Positions 6,545-23,074 of a DNA stretch of 64,000 bases are shown here, piece by piece. The translations under genes and the position numbers were made by a program. Below the pieces are notes generated by a model. That model was not told the origin of the DNA, ran no database searches, and saw only the letters and a list, made by a program, of their open reading frames with translations. The DNA is taken from contig CAVZEH010000024.1 of the NCBI GenBank assembly GCA_963774255.1, positions 59,610 through 123,609 of the forward strand, written 5' to 3'. Each line of letters starts with the position of its first letter. Position 1 is the stretch's first letter. This stretch comes from an uncultured Acidobacteriaceae bacterium. Its GTDB lineage: Bacteria > Acidobacteriota > Terriglobia > Terriglobales > Acidobacteriaceae.

Positions 6545-6872
6545 TCGAGTTTCACGCGCGTTTGCGTTCTCCTCATACCCACTGTAGACACGACTGCGCC
6601 CGCTCGCCGAATGAAAACTACCGCTCCAAGGCACGCTGGAAGCTGCGCGGCGATACCCACAATGGGTTTCGGGTCGATTCTGTTTTGTGACTCAATTCGA
6701 GCGGAACAGCGGAACGGTCCCATCTGGCGTTGCTGCCAAAGATCAGGAGGGGAAGGCCCAGAATCGCTCAATTTGAAAAGCAACAGGTTTTAACGCACCT
6801 GCGTCGACAAGCGTGGTCGATCAAAAATACTTCCTATAGCAACGGAAGATTTCCGATAAGAGTGTCAGGCCC
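6545..6872. repeat. Copy 1 (distal part only) of the ~570-bp island repeat (part B)
   Basis: Near-identical by eye to 13305-13640 and 15095-15430. Homology starts abruptly at GAGTTTCAC (6545), about 100 bp after the kinase stop, and ends inside the terminal segment (GTGTCAGGCCCGAGAT). Confidence 0.8.
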
Positions 6873-6914
6873 GAGATGGAAAAGTGAGCCGCATTGGTAC
6901 GCGACGTTCAGCGT

Positions 6915-7475: not shown

Positions 7476-7586
7476 TACAGCAGGGTAACAGCGACTTCAA
7501 TCGGTCAGCGGCCATTCCAAGCGAGGCTATCAAGCCACTTGCGACAAACTTGCGACAAAACCTTGTTTGCAGATTATTGTTTTGAA

Positions 7587-7695
7587 GCTAAGTCTTTTGT
7601 TTTATTGGCGCCCCTAAGCACGCAAAGTTTGAACCTCTTCGCTGAAAACGTCTCCCAAGCTGAGGCTTTGAGTGCCGAGATCGCGATTATTTTGC
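7587..7695. repeat. Copy 1 (proximal part A) of the island repeat, truncated by an IS110 fragment
   Basis: GCTAAGTCTTTTGTTTTATTGGCGCCCCTAAGCACGCAAAGTTTGAACC... matches 13108-13215 and 14897-15003. Homology stops at 7695, where the transposase fragment begins. Confidence 0.8.
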
Positions 7696-11092: not shown

Positions 11093-12214
11093 TTGAGAGG
11101 TTTCATGTCACAATCACGATTTCTTATCCGGAGATGCAGCAGCCCGGCGGCGGGGTATTGGTTTGCGCTGGTCCTGTTTCTCTCTGCGCCAGCTTGGCTT
11201 CCGGCGGGCCACAGCGCCCTTCACGGTCAATCTGCACCGCGGAAGCGCCTACATAGCGCGATCTCTCACGGCCGGGTGCCCGCCGGCATGGCCTGGATTC
11301 CCGCCGGGGAATTCTGGATGGGCAGCGATGAACCGGAATTCACCGACGCCCGGCCGTGGCACCGGGTACGGCTGAGCGGCTTCTGGATTGACAAGACGAC
11401 CGTCACCAACGCGCAGTTTGCACGCTTCGTGGCCGCAACGCATTACGTCACCGTTGCCGAACGTAAACCCCGCGCCGAGGACTTTCCGGATGCCCCGCCT
11501 GAGAATCTTGTAGCAGGTTCGGTGGTGTTCACGCCGCCCGCTCATCCCGTGCCCTTGGACGATCAGATGCAATGGTGGAGCTATGTGAAAGGCGCTGACT
11601 GGCGGCACCCGGAAGGTCCAGGCAGCACGATCAAAGGCCGGGAAAACCACCCAGTAGTACAAATCGCTTATGAGGATGCTGAGGCATATGCCAGGTGGGC
11701 AGGAACGGCTCCCAACGGAAGCGGAATTTGAATACGCCGGACGTGGCGGACTTGACCGTCAGCCTTATGCGTGGGGAAGGGAGTTCAAGCCGGCAGGCAA
11801 GGTACATGGCAAATACATTCCAAGGGAGCTTCCCCGATCACAACACGGCTGCGGATGGCTACCTGAGGCGCAGCGCCGGTGGCTTCGTTCCCGCCCAATG
11901 GGTATGGACTCTATGACATGTCCGGTAACGTTTGGGAGTGGACGTCTGATTGGTATCGGCCTGACTACTACAAGACGCTGGCGAACAGTGGAACGGCCGC
12001 GGTAAATCCCACAGGGCCTAGGGAGAGCTTTGATCCCGCGGAGCCGGGCCTGCCGAAAAAGGTCCATCGCGGCGGCTCGTTCTTGTGCACAGATCAGTAT
12101 TGTTCGCGTTACATGCCGGGTGGGCGCGGCAAAGGCGAGCCGAGCACAGGGACCAATCACCTTGGATTTCGCTTGGTGAAGGATGCTTCCCCAGCCCCAA
12201 CTAGCGCCAACTGA
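11093..12214 (+). pseudogene. Formylglycine-generating enzyme (FGE/SUMF1 family), three frame disruptions
   Basis: FGE-like pieces lie in successive frames: GMAWIPAGEFWMGSD...YARWAG / RLPTEAEFEYAGRGGLDRQPYAWG / MANTFQGSFPDHNTAADGY / [25 protein letters not shown]...HRGGSFLC. The breaks are near 11704, 11801 and 11865. Confidence 0.8.
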
Positions 12215-13067: not shown

Positions 13068-13107
13068 AATTGCGCCAGAATCTTGTTTCCAGATTGCCGT
13101 TTTGCGG

Positions 13108-13673
13108 TTAAGTCTTTTGTTTTATTGGCGTCCCTAAGCACGCAAAGTTTGAACCTCTTCGCTGAAAACGTCTCCCAAGCTGAGGCTTTGAGTGCCGAGA
13201 TCGCGATTATTTTGCAGCCGTTTGCGAGATAATGCCATTCCCGTTGACACGCAAAACGAGTTGGAACCAAAGAGGAAGCGTAATCCCAAGATGGCAAGAA
13301 TGGTGCGAGTTTCACACGCATTTGCGTTCTCCTCATACCCACTGTAGGCACGACTGCGCCCACCCGCCGAATGAAAATTACCGCTCCAAGGCACGCTGGA
13401 AGCTGCGCGGCGATACCCACAATGGTTCCGGGTCGATTTCTGTTTTGTGACTCAATTCGAGCGGAACAGCGGAACGGTTCCATCTGGCGTTGCTGCCAAA
13501 GATCAGGAGGCGAAGGCCCAGAATCGCTCAATTTGAAAAGCAACAGGTTTTGACGCACGTGCGTCAACAAGCGTGGTCGATCAAAAATACTTGCTATAGC
13601 AACGGAAGATTTCCGATAAGAGTGTCAGGGTCGGCCCGAGATTAGCTATCGTCCCGTCTGTCCCCCTACTTCC
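13108..13673. repeat. Copy 2 (complete, parts A+B) of the ~570-bp island repeat
   Basis: Collinear with 14897-15483 along its whole length. It starts with a tRNA-Glu junction mimic and ends with a C-rich terminal segment, ...GATTAGCTATCGTCCCGTCTGTCCCCCTACTTCC. No protein-like frame. Confidence 0.85.
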
Positions 13674-13682
13674 CACCAGCTC

Positions 13683-14812: not shown

Positions 14813-14880
14813 AAATAGGGGGACAGACTGGACGATACCTAATCCCGGCCCGAGCGTGACACTCTTATTGGAAATCTTCC
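14813..14880. repeat. Inverted copy of the terminal ~68 nt of the island repeat
   Basis: The reverse complement (GGAAGATTTCCAATAAGAGTGTCACGCTCGGGCCGGGATTAGGTATCGTCCAGTCTGTCCCCCTATTT) matches 13604-13671 and 15396-15463 at roughly 60 of 68 positions by eye. Confidence 0.8.
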
Positions 14881-14896
14881 ATTGATTTTTCATTTT

Positions 14897-15483
14897 GCTA
14901 AGTTAATAATTTTATTGGCGTCCCTAAGCACGCAAAGTTTGAACCACTTCGCTGAAAACGTCTCCAAGGTGAGGCTTTGAGTACCGAGATCGCGATTATT
15001 TGCAGTCGTTTGCGAGATAATGCCATTCCCGTTGACACGCAAAACGAGTTGGAACCAAAGAGGAAGCGTAATCCCAAGATGGCAAGAATGGCGCGAGTTT
15101 CACACGCGTTTGCGTTCTCCTCATACCCACTGTAGGCACGACTGCGCCCGCCCGCCGAATGAAAACTACCGCTCCAAGCCACGCTGGAAGCTGTGCGGCG
15201 ATACCCACAATGGGTTTCGGGTCGATTCTGTTTTGTGACTCAATTCGAGCGGAACAGCGGAACGGTTCCATCTGGCGTTGCTGCCAAAGATCAGGAGAGG
15301 AAGGCACCGGAATCGCTGAATTTGAAAAGCAACAGGCTTTGACGCACCTGCATCGACAAGCGTGGTCGATCAAAAATACTTCCTATAGCAACGGAAGATT
15401 TCCGATAAGAGTGCCAGGTTCGGCCCGAGATTAGGTATCGTCCATTCTGTCCCCCTATTTTCCCCCTGTCTCCCCCTATTTCC
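14897..15483. repeat. Copy 3 (complete, parts A+B) of the ~570-bp island repeat
   Basis: Collinear with 13108-13673. The terminal C-rich motif is doubled (TGTCCCCCTATTTTCCCCCTGTCTCCCCCTATTTCC). It abuts the 3' end of the GHKL-module operon. Confidence 0.85.
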
Positions 15484-15525: not shown

Positions 15526-16251
15526 TCAGAGTAGTGGTGGTGAACCCGCCCGCCACGGTATGAATTCATGAGGTAAGAGATTAAGAAGTTGACTTGGCTC
15601 CATAGCGTAGAGGTCATATGTCACATCGAACTGTTGCACTACGTCAATAAATCTGCGAACCGTGCCAGGCTTTCTCTTGGTCGATGCCGCTCCGCGTTTC
15701 GGGCGTTGCCTCTCAGGATCGTAGTACAGTCTATTGGCAGCACCAATGATTGCCCGATTTGTGATGAATTCCTGACGTGATGCAAACTGCTCCATCAGAT
15801 CGCTTAGCTGATCGACAGGTCCCTGCAGTAGGAGGTTGGCCTCGATCCCATAAAGTTGATAAACGCGAAATGGTCCTGCGAGTAGATGGCGATAATATCT
15901 CCAGCTCGCTGTGCCAGGAATATAAAGTGCCTCAGATTTAACGACCCGCTGATCCTCTGAGTCACGCGGACAAACGCGATCGAAATAGAAGAGGGCCAAC
16001 CAAGCCCAAAGACCGCGATTGTAATTCACGTCCTGCAGGCCACTGATTATGGAACTCAGGTACTCAGCTGCTTCCAGCCGAGTCGAGAATTCCCGATCCT
16101 CAACTTCCCTAGCCGAAACTAGTTGTGTTGAAGTTGCTGGGTTGTCGAGCAGTTCCAGCGGCACCGGCAGGTCGTCCCCAGCCCTCGTTCGGGCAAGAAA
16201 GTCGGCAAAATGTTGAATGCCTTCATCGTTCAATATCCCGATCTGCTTCAT
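15526..16251 (-). CDS. Hypothetical protein E (last gene of the GHKL module)
   Basis: 241 aa (MKQIGILNDEGIQHFADFLARTRAG...). ATGA overlap with the upstream ORF. Natural-looking composition, no motif I can assign. Confidence 0.55.
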   Translation of the reverse strand: MKQIGILNDEGIQHFADFLARTRAGDDLPVPLELLDNPATSTQLVSAREVEDREFSTRLEAAEYLSSIISGLQDVNYNRGLWAWLALFYFDRVCPRDSEDQRVVKSEALYIPGTASWRYYRHLLAGPFRVYQLYGIEANLLLQGPVDQLSDLMEQFASRQEFITNRAIIGAANRLYYDPERQRPKRGAASTKRKPGTVRRFIDVVQQFDVTYDLYAMEPSQLLNLLPHEFIPWRAGSPPLL

Positions 16252-16952
16252 GAGTGTTCCTCAAGTGCGAGAGATTCCAGAAAATTAATGCAAGCTGGCT
16301 GGCGCTCGCAGAAGGCCTGCACCGCCGAATCAATCCAAGGCCTCACATCGTAATCCTCGGCCGGAGGCTCTCCGATATGAGGCAGGGCAGTCACAAAATG
16401 GACCCACTGGTCGCGCCAGTCATCCCCCTCCGAGTCATATTCGTAATCATCATCCTGGAGAATAGACGTCAGGATCTCCCGCACGACCGCCGGATATACC
16501 AGCGCGAAAAATGTCGGATTCGATCGTATATACTCCTTATTATCGATCCGCTGATTCACTACCAGCGTTGGCGTTGCGCTGTCAGCGATCTCAAGCCTCC
16601 ACGGAAGGTTTCCCAGTTCCTCGAATCTCACCTCCAGGATGCAGACACGGTTACCGAAGCCTTCAGTGGGATTGGCAATAAGGCCGTCAGCCTCAGCCAG
16701 CAGTCGCCCCTGCTCGCCTCGGAAGTCAGTCACTTTCACCCGGAAATAGATCAGCTCACGGTTGTCAATTTCGTGGAGGGTCCGGTCGGCATCACATCGT
16801 GGCTGGGCAACTGTTCCGTAATCAAACCGCATATAAGAGGTCCGGTAGTAAGCCTCGATATAAATCCGACCGTCAGGGGGAAGGTTCAGAATCCGAGAGA
16901 TCGATCCTGGCGTCGAAACTGGGTGGATTGGGTTCCTGCTTCTTGAGAGCAA
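16248..16952 (-). CDS. Hypothetical protein D (acidic C-terminal region)
   Basis: 234 aa if it starts at the TTG at 16952. There is no in-frame ATG near the 5' end. It is in the same frame as the upstream ORF C, separated by one TGA plus 18 sense codons. It contains DDDYEYDSEGDDWRDQW. Confidence 0.5.
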   Translation of the reverse strand: MLSRSRNPIHPVSTPGSISRILNLPPDGRIYIEAYYRTSYMRFDYGTVAQPRCDADRTLHEIDNRELIYFRVKVTDFRGEQGRLLAEADGLIANPTEGFGNRVCILEVRFEELGNLPWRLEIADSATPTLVVNQRIDNKEYIRSNPTFFALVYPAVVREILTSILQDDDYEYDSEGDDWRDQWVHFVTALPHIGEPPAEDYDVRPWIDSAVQAFCERQPACINFLESLALEEHS

Positions 16953-17006
16953 TCTGAGTGCTCTTTCGCGGGATTTTCCTGCGGTTCGTATAATTGAATG
17001 TGCGTT

Positions 17007-17957
17007 TCATAACTGTTCAATCTCCGACTGTTTCAAGCGGATCTGGAGATCACGATGTTCGTCGAATCCCGTCAACCTGACATTCGAATTAGGACCCAGC
17101 AGGTTGACAACGAGCTGATTTTCAGCGCGCGACACGATGTCGGCGGCTTCAGACTCCAGGGTGAAATCACCGGACTCAATATGGAAGTCTTCGGGAACAT
17201 ACCGCTTTACGGAATCACCATTGCGGACAGCGTAACCCAGCCGTACTGTCACCTGCCTGGGGCTGACCGGCACCGCCGGATTCATGCTGACGCGGAAACC
17301 ACCGACGATTCTCTCAAGTCGGACGGGCGGCGTTGATTTGGGAGGCAGGGGCGGCTTGATTGGTGTCTTCCGTTTCGTTCTGCCCGACAGCACGCCCGTA
17401 CCTTCACCATCCTTTCCTTCCTCCGAAGCCTGCACTACAAAGAAGAGATCTTTCAGGAGGTCCCTGTCCTTCTCCCGGCTTGCAGCAGTCAGTGTCCGAA
17501 TCAGGTTTGCGACGCTGTTCTTGACAAACCGCAATGTGTACGTCCCATGATCGTACTTGTTCTTGAATTTTTCTGATCGATCCTGCCACTCCGTGTGAGC
17601 GGGATTCTCAGCGTCACCCAGAAGCTTCCCCAACGGTTTGTCGTCGATCACGACAAGAGCTCTAACCCCGCGCTCTGCAGGAACCTTCTGGTTCGCTACG
17701 GTAATGTCCTGCCGGACAAAGTGAATCTCGCCTTTTTCGAGCTGCGGGTCACGTTCCAGATAAATGGTGAACACGCCAAGTTGAAGAGTCTTTCCTTTTT
17801 CCTTCACCCACGGACTGATCCTGACAGCCAGGCGCTGTTTGTCCTCGTATCGTTGCGTGAGCGTTGCCTTGTTTTCGTCCGAGAATTTCACAAAGTCCCA
17901 GACCGGTGCCTTGTCCTGAGGCAACGGGTAGTGTGTTACAAGTTCAGCGTCCGGCAT
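17007..17957 (-). CDS. Hypothetical protein C, probably the C-terminal two-thirds of the GHKL protein
   Basis: 316 aa from the ATG at 17957. The same frame is open and protein-like upstream (ATAEQFNDRELENLLKTFDLVGWSQT-M...). It contains GDAENPAHTEWQDRSEKFKNKYDHGTYTL. No assignable family. Confidence 0.55.
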   Translation of the reverse strand: MPDAELVTHYPLPQDKAPVWDFVKFSDENKATLTQRYEDKQRLAVRISPWVKEKGKTLQLGVFTIYLERDPQLEKGEIHFVRQDITVANQKVPAERGVRALVVIDDKPLGKLLGDAENPAHTEWQDRSEKFKNKYDHGTYTLRFVKNSVANLIRTLTAASREKDRDLLKDLFFVVQASEEGKDGEGTGVLSGRTKRKTPIKPPLPPKSTPPVRLERIVGGFRVSMNPAVPVSPRQVTVRLGYAVRNGDSVKRYVPEDFHIESGDFTLESEAADIVSRAENQLVVNLLGPNSNVRLTGFDEHRDLQIRLKQSEIEQL

Positions 17958-18927
17958 GGTTTGCGACCATCCGACAAGATCGAAAGTCTTGAGCAGATTC
18001 TCCAGTTCGCGATCGTTGAACTGTTCCGCGGTGGCGCGCGCGCAGGGTTCCCTGCGAAAGCGCGATCGTACCGGAGGGAGACTCCAGCAGAACCGAAAGC
18101 GTGCCCCGAATCAACGGCGCAAAGTAGTGTCGGATGAAAGCCTTGGCTACTTCTTTGAAGGTTATGGCAGGATCAGGAAATGGAATAACGATCGAGAGAC
18201 CGGGGCCATCGCCTCTTCTTAGGTGGAACTGCTCCCCAAATTTGTCAATCAGCGCTCGATCTTCGACAGGTGTAACGAAATGATCTTCTTCCACGATCCC
18301 GAACCATCCGTAAGGAAAGTGCTTCACACCGTTCACCCGATGAATCTTAATAATCGATTGACCCATCAGCAGCATTCGCCCATCATTCCGGCGTTTGGTG
18401 AATCCAAAAAACGAGTGAATCCTCGAGGCGGCTGCAAAAACGGTGTGGCCGAGGCCCCAGCGTCCTCGATCAGATTCTTTCTTCCCTGACCGACCAAGGT
18501 TCCTCCAGAAATAGTAGAAATCGCTGGTTCCCTGGTTGTCATTTTCGTCTGGGTTAGCCTGAAGTGGATCGCCTTGCAGGCCCCTTGTCCCAAAATCTTC
18601 GATGGCCAGGAAGGGAACAGGTCCATCCAATGCAGGTAATTCATCCGCTCGAATACCTGAATCAGGGGCCTGGATATGTGCTCTCAGGCTATTCAGATAA
18701 GAGTGGGCGGTTGCCGCAGATAATGCCCAACTGTCCGTACCGAAGACGACTCTAATCTGCACGTGGCCGTTCGCTCGAGCGTCCAGGGAGTTCTGATTGG
18801 ATTCTCGGACGAGTGCCGCAGCCAGACTGTCAATTGCGTCTGTACTGAAGAACTCGTCATGCACCGGATCGGCATTCATATCTGCCCGACCCATTGGCTT
18901 GAAACCCCATTTCGCGACGCTCATCAT
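17944..18927 (-). CDS. GHKL (MutL/MORC/Hsp90-type) ATPase domain protein
   Basis: Bergerat-fold motifs: N-box LVRESNQNSLDA, G1 AIEDFGTRGL, G2-like GRWGLGHTVF. AGGAG lies 7 nt before the ATGATG start. The last ~25 codons (RARHRGTVQRSRTGESAQDFRSCRMVANHAGR) look like out-of-frame read-through. Confidence 0.7.
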   Translation of the reverse strand: MMSVAKWGFKPMGRADMNADPVHDEFFSTDAIDSLAAALVRESNQNSLDARANGHVQIRVVFGTDSWALSAATAHSYLNSLRAHIQAPDSGIRADELPALDGPVPFLAIEDFGTRGLQGDPLQANPDENDNQGTSDFYYFWRNLGRSGKKESDRGRWGLGHTVFAAASRIHSFFGFTKRRNDGRMLLMGQSIIKIHRVNGVKHFPYGWFGIVEEDHFVTPVEDRALIDKFGEQFHLRRGDGPGLSIVIPFPDPAITFKEVAKAFIRHYFAPLIRGTLSVLLESPSGTIALSQGTLRARHRGTVQRSRTGESAQDFRSCRMVANHAGR

Positions 18928-18939
18928 TGACGCTCCTGT

Positions 18940-19575
18940 TCAGTTCGTTCCAGCCAGCTGCTGTTCCGGCAGCAATGTGAACAGCTCCTTTGCTGTCGAC
19001 ATCAAATCGATCTTCGGCTTCAATGAATAACCCTGACGGCCATGCTGGATGATCAAATCCTGTTGCCTCATCCATGCCAGACAGAGATAAACCTGGTAAC
19101 TCGGAATTTCACTGCCGTCGCGAGAGTTCTTAAGGGGCATGATTGCCTCTACCACGAAGCGATTTTTCCGGACCGCAGCCGACGAAAGAGCGGTTACCAC
19201 ATCTATGAGGACGCCGAAAGGAGCCTTGTGCTCGTACTCGCCCTTCCGGCCCTTTGACCAACCGACTTTTACAAGTGCCTCTCCGTTCCGACAAAACTTT
19301 GGATATTCGTTAGCGCGACGCGTTTTCCGCGGCGTGGGAGATGATTGCGGGATATGCAAAAGCTCATTGGTCAAAGCGTGCACATGAAGCGCAGCCGCCG
19401 TCTCAGCGGGGGCCTTTTTCTCAATTTCGGACCGAAGATCCGCAAGGCTGCGCGCCCATCCCGCAAGCTCGACGATCAGGCCATAATCACCGCCGGTGGC
19501 TGTCTCCGCCAGCAGCTTCTTGAGATTGTTTTCGGCATCGCCAACAATGCGGGATGCTTCACCTATTGCATTCAT
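18940..19575 (-). CDS. Hypothetical protein A (first gene of the GHKL module)
   Basis: The ORF opens at 19599 (GTG), but a promoter-like element overlaps that codon. The ATG at 19575 gives MNAIGEASRIVGDAENNLKKLL... (211 aa). No assignable motif. The C-terminal part might be winged-helix-like, which is speculative. Confidence 0.55.
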   Translation of the reverse strand: MNAIGEASRIVGDAENNLKKLLAETATGGDYGLIVELAGWARSLADLRSEIEKKAPAETAAALHVHALTNELLHIPQSSPTPRKTRRANEYPKFCRNGEALVKVGWSKGRKGEYEHKAPFGVLIDVVTALSSAAVRKNRFVVEAIMPLKNSRDGSEIPSYQVYLCLAWMRQQDLIIQHGRQGYSLKPKIDLMSTAKELFTLLPEQQLAGTN

Positions 19576-19588
19576 AAAGTATAAAAAC

Positions 19589-19616
19589 AATATAACCACA
19601 ATACAGATACTGTCAA
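19589..19616 (-). promoter_or_regulatory. Sigma70-like promoter for the five-ORF GHKL module
   Basis: The minus strand reads TTGACA (19616-19611), a 16-nt spacer, then TATATT (19594-19589). It sits 13 nt upstream of the ATG at 19575, in an AT-rich patch of the dcm-A gap. Confidence 0.35.
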
Positions 19617-19772
19617 GCTTTTTTCTCCTTGTCCTTGCGCTACTTTCTGTGAACGATCAGTTTCGGCAGGCAGATAGCCGCCATAAGGCGCCCTTACCGG
19701 GGAGCCAATAGCATCTTCGAAAGGTAGGAGCAACATTCAGGTGATGGAACAATCTGGCCGACAAGGACGTCG

Positions 19773-21407
19773 TTAGCGTGAACCGAGCTCTGCGGATTGG
19801 TTATTAACTGGTTCGGGATCAAATACCAATGGCAATCTCTGTTGATCGGGAGTCCCGTAGCAGGCAGTCGCCACTTGTTCCACAACACGGGCGATTTGCG
19901 TTGCAAGAAGCGGCGGAACAGCGTTTCCAACCTGGATGTATTGTTCTGTGCGGCTTCCGCAAAACATATAGTTGTCAGGGAATGTTTGTAGCCGCGCAGC
20001 CTCACGAACGGTCAGGCTTCTGCACTGCTTTTCATCGTAATGGATATAGTAATGCCCGTCTTTAGCGATATGACTCGTGATAGTTGTCGCGGGCTTGTCG
20101 CCCAACTGCACCCTAAACCTGTCATCAAAATACTCCTGCTTCTTCTCGTCAAGGACGTTCTTATGCTTGGGAAGTAAGCCGGAAGGAAAATCGCGTAGCT
20201 CTGGTGAGATTTTCAGCAATTTTGCATATGACGCTGCATACAGGTATCTGTAAAGGTCCTCAACCATGTGAGGCCTGCTCGAATGATTGCACACCCCGTT
20301 TAGTCGCTTGTCACAATACCACCTTGACTTGTATCTCGAAGTTGCCTGGTATGACAGAAACTCGCCACCTCGCCCAAAACGTGGAATCTTAAGATGTTTA
20401 AGGATCCAACGGATCTCAGCCCTGAGAATGCTCCCGTTGCCATTAGGAATATCATCAAGGATGCCATCTTCCCTAATGCCGTTGAGGGCCCGACGCCACT
20501 CGTCCTTTCCATCGTTCGTACGCGATAGCCCGCTGCGCAGTCGTGGCAGACCCGAAAGTACTTCCGATGCGCTTATATGCCGTTCGTAAGTTTGGAGTAT
20601 AGGTATACGGGCTGGCGCAAGATCACTTCGCACCCCGATTAGGATTATGCGGTGTCGTGACTGCGGAATCCCAAAATCCTCGCACTTAATTATGAAATCG
20701 CAAGAATCGTATTCGGAACGGCCGTCTTCCGTGCGCGCTTTTGACTGAGCAGTTAGAGGGAAGAGATGATACCGGACTGGAGTACCGGCACCCGTGGCTT
20801 CGTGGGGTGCCGTCAGGTCACTCAGAATCTGACGAAATATTCCTTGTTTCCCAAGCTTCGAAGACAACAAGCCTTTGACATTTTCGAAGACAAAGATCGA
20901 TGGACGATGTTCGGCAAGTATCCGAAGGTACTCCTTATACAGAAAGACGCGGTGGTCGTTCGGATCAATTCCTCCATTCCGTGAACGTCCGATAAGGGAA
21001 TAGGCTTGGCATGGCGGTCCGCCACAAAGAATCCAACTAGATGATCCAGAGATTGCCGCACGAATCTTGTCGTCTGCCTTTTTTGGGTCCACCTTGCCAA
21101 GTTCTGCGTTCCACGACTCTGATCGGGCCGCCGCGGCCGCAACCGCATGCTTTTTGAAGAGCTGATCACGCGATAGCCGGCCTTGCAGGTGGAGGTAGTA
21201 ATCTTCGGGTACGTCAGAGGAGCGGAACTGACGGAAAAAACTCCGCAGTTCGAGCGTTTGGTGAGCAGCTTGGTCCTTCTCAATTGAAAGAACAATCTTA
21301 AAGGCAGGCTCTCCTGAACCACGGCGAACCGAAGAAAATCCTTCTCCGAGACCGCCTGGACCTGCGAATAAATCGACAAGAGGTATCGGCTTAATCTTTC
21401 TTTGCAT
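19773..21407 (-). CDS. dcm: DNA (cytosine-5)-methyltransferase
   Basis: Canonical motifs in order: DLFAGPGGLGEGF (I), GGPPCQAYS (IV), ENVKGLLS (VI), QSRHRIILIGV (VIII), REAARLQTFPDNY (IX), QVGNAVPPLLA (X). A long variable region lies between VIII and IX. Confidence 0.9.
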   Translation of the reverse strand: MQRKIKPIPLVDLFAGPGGLGEGFSSVRRGSGEPAFKIVLSIEKDQAAHQTLELRSFFRQFRSSDVPEDYYLHLQGRLSRDQLFKKHAVAAAAARSESWNAELGKVDPKKADDKIRAAISGSSSWILCGGPPCQAYSLIGRSRNGGIDPNDHRVFLYKEYLRILAEHRPSIFVFENVKGLLSSKLGKQGIFRQILSDLTAPHEATGAGTPVRYHLFPLTAQSKARTEDGRSEYDSCDFIIKCEDFGIPQSRHRIILIGVRSDLAPARIPILQTYERHISASEVLSGLPRLRSGLSRTNDGKDEWRRALNGIREDGILDDIPNGNGSILRAEIRWILKHLKIPRFGRGGEFLSYQATSRYKSRWYCDKRLNGVCNHSSRPHMVEDLYRYLYAASYAKLLKISPELRDFPSGLLPKHKNVLDEKKQEYFDDRFRVQLGDKPATTITSHIAKDGHYYIHYDEKQCRSLTVREAARLQTFPDNYMFCGSRTEQYIQVGNAVPPLLATQIARVVEQVATACYGTPDQQRLPLVFDPEPVNNQSAELGSR

Positions 21408-21810
21408 TGTTCAGGGATTGACAGAGTTTTTTCAGAAGTTCCGTTTCATTGTCCAGTTCACATTCCCAAACCACAATCACATTCCACCCCAGCTTCCTGA
21501 GTTTACGAGCATTATTCCGATCCCGTTCCACATTACCTAAAAGCTTATTGGCCCAAAATTCCGGTCTGCTTTTCGGTAACACACCGTTAGAGCATTTGGG
21601 GTGATGATGCCAGAAGCAGCCGTGCACAAAAAGTGCCGTATGAAATCGGGGCAACACAATATCGGGCTTTCCTGCCAGATCTTTACGGTGCAAGGAGAAG
21701 CGAAAACCTTGCCGATGTAGCAAGGAACGCACACGCCTCTCTGGAGAAGTGTCTTTGCCTCTGATTCGACCCATGTTCCAACTGCGTCGCCCTGGTGTTA
21801 AACGATCCAT
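21391..21810 (-). CDS. vsr: Very short patch repair endonuclease
   Basis: 139 aa with RSWNMGRIRGKDTSPE, KPDIVLPRFHTALFVHGCFWHHH and IVVWECEL. It overlaps dcm by 17 nt. Confidence 0.9.
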   Translation of the reverse strand: MDRLTPGRRSWNMGRIRGKDTSPERRVRSLLHRQGFRFSLHRKDLAGKPDIVLPRFHTALFVHGCFWHHHPKCSNGVLPKSRPEFWANKLLGNVERDRNNARKLRKLGWNVIVVWECELDNETELLKKLCQSLNNAKKD

Positions 21811-22996: not shown

Positions 22997-23074
22997 TGGC
23001 GTCCCCGACGGGATTTGAACCCGTGTTATCGCCGTGAAAGGGCGGTGTCCTAGGCCGGGCTAGACGACGGGGAC
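22997..23074 (-). tRNA. tRNA-Glu (anticodon UUC)
   Basis: The reverse complement GTCCCCGTCGTCTAGCCCGGCCTAGGACACCGCCCTTTCACGGCGATAACACGGGTTCAAATCCCGTCGGGGACGCCA is very similar to E. coli tRNA-Glu. Acceptor stem GTCCCCG/CGGGGAC, anticodon loop CUUUCAC, T-arm ACGGG-TTCAAAT-CCCGT, encoded CCA. Confidence 0.9.

Follow-up and report, generated by a model that had tools for sequence, protein, structure and literature searches.

A recurrent three-gene cassette built around a GHKL ATPase, and its Dcm–Vsr-linked form in an Acidobacteriaceae island

Described GHKL systems and the locus in the window

The Mza system is a catalogued example of a theme in which a GHKL ATPase occurs together with a cytosine methylase and the mismatch endonuclease Vsr. 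This theme is established as restriction-modification-like (R-M-like), and its published forms include the MORC/paraMORC ATPases (PMC2292703) and the HEF_HK/Response_reg_2 systems (PMC8011034). A GHKL ATPase is also part of VcSduA, a GHKL-Shedu fusion and experimentally validated anti-phage system, in which the ATPase is proposed to gate a nuclease (PMC12137116). Moreover, the PADLOC database contains systems named PDC-x, which are unpublished candidates (PMC11811056). The locus described here comes from an uncultured Acidobacteriaceae bacterium and lies at positions 15526-21810 of a 64,000-nucleotide (nt) stretch of contig CAVZEH010000024.1, which is referred to as the window. It carries genes for Vsr, for a C5-cytosine methyltransferase (Dcm) and for four further proteins, A, B, D and E, of which B is a GHKL ATPase. 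The genes for B, D and E constitute a recurrent, unnamed three-gene cassette, representing a new form of the known theme of a paraMORC-type GHKL ATPase with methylase and Vsr.

An open reading frame (ORF) check of the window recovered, at the same coordinates, all seven minus-strand ORFs listed in a first-pass annotation of this DNA. The 17-nt overlap of vsr and dcm was found again, as were the ATGA overlap at the D/E junction, the 14-nt overlap between the GHKL ORF and the following ORF C, and the gap in front of the ATPase gene, in which the stop codon of A is followed by ACAGGAGCGTCA (12 nt, AGGAG inside) and then by the ATG of B. The spacer between dcm and A measures 197 nt and not ~170 nt as had been estimated. 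The five-ORF module proposed earlier is real and centred on the GHKL ATPase, but it contains four genes (A, B, D and E), as the GHKL ORF and ORF C form a single one. The libraries searched were Pfam-A, NCBIfam release 20 (June 2026) and PADLOC-DB v2.0.0. The features of the locus are as follows:

21391..21810, minus strand: vsr, very-short-patch T:G mismatch endonuclease; intact; Pfam Vsr 1.2e-28, TIGR00632 5.9e-41 (above cut-off), PADLOC Vsr 3e-32
19773..21407, minus strand: dcm, C5-cytosine DNA methyltransferase of 544 amino acids (aa); intact; Pfam DNA_methylase 5.9e-46, TIGR00675 1.4e-42 (above cut-off)
19589..19616, minus strand: sigma-70-type promoter-like site, TTGACA-16-TATATT, putatively for A-B-D-E; 11/12 positions, ~14 nt upstream of the ATG of A
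18940..19575, minus strand: A, accessory gene for a 211-aa protein, family not recognised; intact
17007..18927, minus strand: B, GHKL ATPase with predicted transducer and C-terminal beta-sandwich; from frame analysis, homologues and a model of the intact relative P0001
16248..17010, minus strand: D, ~254-aa protein, family not recognised; from family alignment and frame analysis
15526..16251, minus strand: E, 241-aa protein, predicted to be mostly alpha-helical, without known fold; intact; AlphaFold predicted local distance difference test (pLDDT) 92.7, predicted template modelling score (pTM) 0.88

Both the methyltransferase and the Vsr endonuclease expected of a type II R-M system with a V gene are thus present. 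The translation of the window Dcm displays the catalytic motifs FAGPGG, PCQ, ENV and GNAV, and the Vsr sequence contains, by eye, GKPDIV and FVHGCFWHHH, which we take to be the motifs of E. coli Vsr. The promoter-like site is the top sigma-70-type match within 15.3-22.1 kb, as a consensus match only. Its position in the dcm-A spacer suggests that A-B-D-E is probably a transcription unit of its own, separate from vsr-dcm.

Like the MORC/paraMORC proteins (PMC2292703), B begins with a GHKL domain whose ATP-binding motifs are intact; behind it follow a predicted domain of the transducer/S5 type and a C-terminal extension specific to the family. A sporadic, laterally mobile distribution is shared as well, and so is a recurrent linkage to cytosine methylase and Vsr, which in B-D-E concerns a subset of loci. 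In contrast to MORC/paraMORC, B is detected neither by Pfam HATPase_c_3 nor by any other Pfam model, and most B-D-E loci are without a methylase. The partners also differ, being two small unrecognised proteins, one of them without known fold, instead of SF-II helicase, PD-(D/E)xK, HNH or TIR proteins. VcSduA is similar in its GHKL ATPase, but it is a single polypeptide with a DUF4263 PD-(D/E)xK nuclease, whereas B-D-E has no DUF4263 and its partners are separate proteins. For the HEF_HK/Response_reg_2 systems, no Pfam match to Response_reg_2 (PF19192) or HEF_HK was obtained in any of the seven ORFs.

The catalogued candidate closest to B is PDC-M33. B and all 49 sampled family members match the PADLOC profile PDC-M33A collinearly, and this profile (627 positions) is of similar length. 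The similarity is distant, with E-values of 2.3e-10 for the N part and 1.4e-3 for the C part of the window B and 2.9e-26 at best in the family, and D, E and A give no match to the profiles of PDC-M33 or to any other PADLOC model. A PADLOC search had been proposed earlier as a way to recognise an already described system; it yielded this distant match for B and nothing for A, D and E. The expectation that the composition is unlike that of Mza agrees with the same search, in which no Mza model matched. In the literature, no description of PDC-M33 or of a matching GHKL three-gene defence system was found, nor a functional test of any family member.

The B-D-E core and its proteins

The distribution of the cassette was examined in one genome per species (GTDB representatives), which provided 73 loci. 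In 65 of them, B, D and E directly follow one another in this order and on one strand; the other 8 contain only B, itself partial or at a contig end. Such recurrence in independent loci (65/73) far exceeds what chance would produce. Moreover, the identities of B and E co-vary (r = 0.81, Mantel p = 0.002). The first-pass annotation had named synteny of the homologues as a check, and D and E proved to be strictly syntenic with the GHKL gene. No fourth conserved gene was found, either by clustering of all flanking ORFs or by Pfam scans of 212 flanking ORFs. These ORFs are heterogeneous and often housekeeping; N6_Mtase is the most frequent family among the 212, with 5 ORFs, and no helicase or nuclease family occurs in more than 2-3 loci. 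In other words, B-D-E is a conserved, self-contained three-gene cassette, in which D and E are obligate partners of B. Its hosts belong to Acidobacteriota, Desulfobacterota, Beta- and Gammaproteobacteria, Planctomycetota, Cyanobacteria, Chloroflexota, Lentisphaerota and Myxococcota, together with archaeal bins, and this sporadic distribution suggests horizontal transfer.

In the window, both B and D are interrupted. Three-frame translation of 17007-18927 places a +1 frameshift within the GC run at 18034-18043, where the reading frame switches from the GHKL ORF to ORF C. The repaired product of 640 aa aligns end to end with homologues, mostly of 615-654 aa, and it matches 1,696 proteins, the best of which is 77% identical over 100% of the length. 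The earlier suspicion of a GHKL+C fusion is thereby confirmed. The second lesion, in D at ~16887-16894, had been missed: the true ATG lies at 17010-17008, overlapping the stop codon of B. An alignment with 30 homologues indicates that the ORF at 16248-16952 lacks the conserved D N-terminus (MxRxxNYTxRxxI...), and this missing part, MKRTFNYTNRRKIPRK..., is found in another frame up to ~16887-16894. Relative to the intact, 77%-identical locus L074, each of the two lesions is a single-base insertion. The other four genes, vsr, dcm, A and E, are intact, with A encoding 211 aa from its ATG at 19575.

The window copy of the cassette is thus probably decayed and non-functional, as judged from its sequence. 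The remainder of the window is densely filled with long ORFs; together with the fragmentary state of the neighbouring integrase, this makes real decay likelier than assembly error. Most likely, the restricting arm is dead here and the decaying island has left an orphan Dcm-Vsr pair. An orphan methylase remnant is a common end state of R-M loci. Splitting of B into two ORFs is seen in ~10 of the 73 loci (including L009, L033, L048, L051, L059, L063, L064 and L070), and in L059 the conserved EWQERSPKF motif is itself interrupted by a one-base insertion. Such recurrent splits could reflect frequent inactivation of a costly gene or errors of metagenome assembly. Two other explanations of the B frameshift were rejected. 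The (GC)5 run at this site was considered as a phase-variable tract, but L074, at 77% identity, has no such tract, and a single-base insertion fits best. A shared frameshift hotspot was also considered, with the match in L062 split near residue 297 as well; L062 is, however, a contig of 0.7x coverage, and its break is at a different site. A further close relative, L080 (8001-10865; 50% identity to B), looks degraded: its B has 581 aa, D is present and E gives only a partial match, and none of dcm, vsr and A is nearby.

The Bergerat motifs of B, read by the first-pass annotation as ESNQNSLDA, IEDFGTRGL and GRWGLGHT, are present and form invariant columns in a 49-sequence family alignment. The invariant residues E41/N45, D110-G112-G115 and G154-R-W-G-L-G159 correspond to the Bergerat patterns ExxxN, DxGxG and GxxGxG. 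Family and profile searches returned little for this protein: no Pfam family, HATPase_c_3 included, matched either half at E <= 0.1; NCBIfam gave only a non-significant match (0.014) to a MutL model; and a B profile search against PDB sequences returned nothing. The AlphaFold model of P0001, an intact relative of B (pLDDT 82, pTM 0.70), is predicted to consist of the GHKL domain, a second alpha/beta domain, a disordered linker (483-527) and a C-terminal beta-sandwich. Foldseek matched this model to the topoisomerase VI B subunit (Topo VI-B, E-value 7e-12), GyrB (9e-7), Hsp90 (2e-6), SMCHD1 (3e-5), PMS2 (6e-4) and MutL (5e-3), with a probability of 1.00 for the first four. The alignments to N-terminal fragments of Topo VI-B, GyrB 43K, PMS2 and MutL span 440-770 columns and extend past the GHKL domain. 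On the evidence of the model, B is predicted to have the GHKL and transducer fold of the DNA-acting branch, nearest to Topo VI-B.

The resemblance to Topo VI-B and the type IIB ATPases lies in the modelled GHKL and transducer architecture, which gives the best structural match of B (Foldseek 7e-12 to 1e-8). By analogy, B may also resemble them in forming a dimeric DNA clamp gated by ATP, with DNA cleavage left to a separate subunit. The differences are considerable, as sequence identity is ~10-12%, global TM-scores are ~0.3 and B has its extra C-terminal beta-sandwich. Furthermore, no Spo11/Toprim-type A subunit was found: the D and E profiles match no topoisomerase or Spo11 chain in PDB, and the E model matches no PDB fold. 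A separate observation concerns a near-invariant, Asp/Glu/His-rich motif of B, LLGDSENPAHTEWQERSxKF, which follows the second domain (P0001 residues 431-453; window ~17560-17630). It could be a metal site or a docking site for D and E, in a region of lower model confidence.

D has 326 homologues in a 90%-identity database; those listed are standalone proteins of ~255 aa, and no Pfam domain occurs among the 120 listed. No Pfam, NCBIfam or PADLOC match was obtained for D, and its profile gave nothing meaningful against PDB sequences. An alignment with 30 homologues reveals one invariant acidic residue and several invariant basic residues in the family, a pattern that would suit an adaptor or a DNA-binding protein more readily than a nuclease dependent on metal ions. 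For E, the same database contains 952 homologues, those listed being standalone, ~242 aa long and without Pfam domains, and an exhaustive hidden Markov model (HMM) search gathers the family into 1,908 clusters at 50% identity. Pfam, NCBIfam and PADLOC provided no match for E, and its profile returned nothing meaningful from PDB sequences. The confident model of E has no neighbour in PDB or BFVD according to Foldseek (best E ~2-3; PDB best 3.1). The residues R102, H122, R159, N165, Y176, R200, D213 and E229 are invariant in the family, and D209 is nearly so. These invariant polar residues make E, by conservation, the best candidate for the catalytic or DNA-contacting subunit. In addition, a search of representatives found three rare E homologues (P0374, P0442 and P0426) with a long disordered tail that ends in a C-terminal zinc ribbon (Pfam Zn_Ribbon_1, 1e-7). 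One of these proteins has a 130-aa N-terminal extension that, by eye, appears like a DNA-binding barrel of the B3/EcoRII-N type.

The N-terminus of protein A is helical and rich in Ala, and conservation is seen in its C-terminal half. The protein has no match in Pfam, NCBIfam or PADLOC, and a PDB profile search retrieved only designed helical repeats through the Ala-rich helix. The C-terminus was also considered as a HARE-HTH-like winged helix, as a HARE-HTH protein takes the position of A in the related locus L081 and MAFFT aligned the two. This assignment was dropped, since hhalign gave it a probability of 0.5%.

Methylase partners and island setting

The linkage to methylases was assessed with HMMs for the C5 methylase, Vsr and A, and with gene calls annotated by Pfam. 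A C5 methylase and Vsr adjoin B-D-E in 6 of the 65 species-representative loci, and also in the window and its closest relatives. The pair stands beside the cassette in L003, L018, L030, L050, L059, L062, L075-L079 and L081/L082, where it is upstream, divergent or convergent. Several arrangements can be distinguished. In L003 and L059, A-B-D-E is followed by a convergent vsr-dcm, and in L030 and L062 the same applies to B-D-E. In L018 and L050, a short Dcm of 330 aa and a divergent Vsr precede A-B-D-E. The close relatives of the window (L075-L078) have the co-directional order dcm-vsr-A-B-D-E, and L075 also contains two integrase genes and a primase. In L079 (Vitiosangium), Dcm-Vsr is divergent, and the prophage-like L081/L082 carry a HARE-HTH protein in the position of A. 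The region 7455-16123 of L081 has prophage-like genes (YqaJ, RusA, IstB-like), the HARE-HTH gene, B-D-E and a convergent dcm-vsr, with genes for a DCD-family protein (PF22769) and thymidylate synthase just downstream.

Wherever Dcm accompanies B-D-E loci, Vsr is present. Protein A was detected by its HMM only in L003, L018, L050, L059 and L074-L078. Of these, L074 is truncated upstream by the end of its contig; all the others possess a C5 methylase and Vsr. The Dcm-Vsr pairs belong to three unrelated lineages, 21-34% identical between lineages; the window Dcm is 45-57% identical to the Dcm beside B-D-E in L003, L030, L075 and L081, and the identities of Dcm and Vsr co-vary (r = 0.89). It follows that methylase-repair pairs have joined the B-D-E core on more than one occasion, which speaks for a functional link and against a single accident passed on by descent. 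Loci with Dcm-Vsr (and A) constitute a subtype of B-D-E. In a neighbour-joining tree, which is not a robust phylogeny, the methylase-linked loci form deep scattered branches and the methylase-less ones large crown clades. The co-occurrence with a C5-methyltransferase that the first-pass annotation had asked about is thus recurrent in a subset, together with A, but in the majority of B-D-E loci no C5 methylase lies within 10 kb.

Type I methylases are found next to the cassette as well. HsdM is directly beside B-D-E in L008, L056, L083 and L084. Among the 65 species-representative loci, it lies within ~3.5 kb in 4. In these branches without C5 methylase, B-D-E stands against HsdM inside split type I R-M operons (L083 7442-13399; L084 8310-19908; L008 8412-9953; L056 10303-11919). 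Two of these loci are dense defence islands: L083 with AbiE, a reverse transcriptase, ScoMcrA-HNH and type I R-M, and L084 with GIY-YIG, HNH and SLFN.

The surroundings of the locus in the window contain the following features:

22997..23074, minus strand: tRNA-Glu(UUC), island anchor; ARAGORN; Rfam tRNA 55 bits
22637..22849, plus strand: tyrosine-recombinase (integrase) remnant, a 70-aa fragment; Pfam Phage_integrase 5.2e-10, profile positions 114-162 of 172 only
14899..15466, no strand given: ~570-nt non-coding repeat abutting the end of the cassette; its start resembles the tRNA-Glu 3' region

An island at tRNA-Glu with integrase and relaxase remnants had been described earlier. The tRNA and an integrase fragment are there, but no relaxase remnant was found at the island. 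The locus is a small, decayed tRNA-Glu integrative island with vsr-dcm and A-B-D-E as its cargo. The 570-nt repeat occurs in copies at 13100-13680, 14910-15466, 6546-6877 and 7580-7695, with an inverted 72-nt piece at 14813-14884; the copies are 94-97% identical to each other. Its first ~25 nt resemble the 3' flank of tRNA-Glu (a 23-nt stretch, 91% identical). The repeat at the cassette end may represent the distal, att-like boundary of the island, and the copies as a whole could be att-like traces left by one island insertion after another. No match to the repeat was found in Rfam or among plasmids, and it is absent from the 85 related loci.

Two further observations concern other parts of the window. 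Two divergent copies of the Acido-Lenti-1 small RNA (Rfam RF01687, 50-54 bits) lie at 56888-56934 (minus strand) and 57063-57109 (plus strand), which points to an acidobacterial or lentisphaerate host. Near the left edge of the low-GC region, an FGE-sulfatase ORF at 11093-11731 (plus strand) aligns only with the initial ~109 positions of a 255-position profile, and the missing part does not follow downstream; the gene may be truncated.

Possible mechanism, alternatives and significance

In the mechanism proposed here, B would act like Topo VI-B, MutL and MORC, dimerising when it binds ATP and clamping or looping DNA. D and E would dock on B and supply DNA recognition and cleavage, with E as the better nuclease candidate in view of its invariant His/Asp/Glu/Tyr/Arg set and the zinc ribbon fused to it in rare homologues. 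In the Dcm-linked subtype, 5-methylcytosine (5mC) introduced by Dcm would mark host DNA, and Vsr would repair the T:G mismatches that arise from 5mC deamination. Protein A might couple the machine to the methylation state, or control expression. The whole would then operate as an ATP-dependent, R-M-like defence. Taken independently of how self is marked, this is the best overall explanation, with a probability of roughly 0.55. It is rather likely that B-D-E is a defence or restriction-like system of some kind. The proposal that the Dcm-linked subtype restricts unmethylated DNA is tentative, and the earlier view that Dcm marks self while the GHKL module restricts is plausible. A bolder version is doubtful, namely that B-D-E is a new class of ATP-dependent DNA-targeting immune machine, a new restriction type instead of a paraMORC variant. 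It would combine a Topo VI-B-like clamp, a nuclease or reader E of new fold and an adaptor D, pluggable into any self-marking methylase (three Dcm-Vsr lineages, type I HsdM), with A as the 5mC coupling factor.

Several observations weigh against a methylation-guided defence. A DNA methylase is missing from the vicinity of ~80% or more of B-D-E loci, so methylation cannot be the general self-marker, and the core may act by another logic. Dcm identity is only weakly correlated with that of B or E (r = 0.32-0.37), and many B-D-E loci sit among housekeeping genes. Searches with Pfam, NCBIfam, PADLOC and PDB profiles detected no domain of a nuclease, helicase or DNA-binding protein in any of A, B, D and E, which is consistent with the first-pass statement that A, D, E and the C part have no recognisable nuclease, helicase or methylase motif. 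A nuclease fold was also not found in the models of B and E, D and A having been searched by sequence only. Type II endonucleases, for their part, are often unrecognisable by sequence. Finally, the frameshifts may be assembly errors, which look the same as real decay unless reads are at hand; split B genes also occur in other metagenome-derived loci.

The likeliest alternative is a B-D-E defence blind to methylation, for example a modification-dependent (type IV-like) machine or one acting by abortive infection, with Dcm-Vsr and HsdM as mere island neighbours and A unrelated. The many methylase-less loci and the weak co-evolution of Dcm with B and E would be expected under such a scheme, as would the varied defence genes that cluster round B-D-E in L083 and L084. 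It is nevertheless unlikely, because three unrelated Dcm-Vsr lineages lie ~0.1-0.5 kb from the cassette in deep, separate branches of B, and the proximity of Dcm is, by a rough estimate, far above chance for a given gene. Moreover, A was never detected in a methylase-less locus (the flank of L074 is missing), and the window and L075-L078 carry the methylase pair and A-B-D-E co-directionally and contiguously, in small islands with little other cargo.

It is improbable that the cassette belongs to a system already described, such as Mza, MORC/paraMORC R-M, HEF_HK/Response_reg_2 or PADLOC PDC-M33. The theme of GHKL, Dcm and Vsr was indeed published in 2008 and 2021, and the match of B to PDC-M33A is collinear (N part at profile positions 24-266 of 627, C part at 310-411) and shared by 49/49 family members. 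The scores are, however, weak (2e-10 here and 3e-26 for the best of the family), D, E and A match no PADLOC model, no NCBIfam model of the June 2026 release matched, and the neighbourhood contains no conserved gene for an SF-II helicase or a PD-(D/E)xK protein. Least probable of all is a role in repair and not in defence: B, resembling MutL, would travel with the methylase as an accessory and enhance the activity of Vsr when deaminated 5mC is corrected by very-short-patch repair. A functional MutL-Vsr interaction exists in E. coli (cited in PMC2292703), the modelled GHKL and transducer fold of B is MutL/PMS2-like, and Dcm at these loci is always accompanied by Vsr. Nonetheless, B-D-E mostly occurs without Vsr or Dcm, and the predicted fold of B is nearer to Topo VI-B (7e-12) than to MutL (5e-3). 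The sporadic distribution, suggestive of horizontal transfer, and the defence-island and mobile contexts also speak against a repair role, as does the window itself, where B and D are broken and Vsr is intact.

The preferred reading thus remains an ATP-dependent, R-M-like defence, and its value lies in the B-D-E family rather than in the broken copy of the window. If B-D-E is a defence system, it is one that is abundant in environmental bacteria and some archaea and has been missed by all three libraries searched, namely Pfam-A, NCBIfam and PADLOC-DB. It would represent a third way of wiring a GHKL ATPase to DNA methylation, after MORC/paraMORC and Mza, with one component without known fold. 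The recruitment of three Dcm-Vsr pairs and of type I methylases would, in turn, provide a natural test case for how restriction modules swap their self-marking partners.

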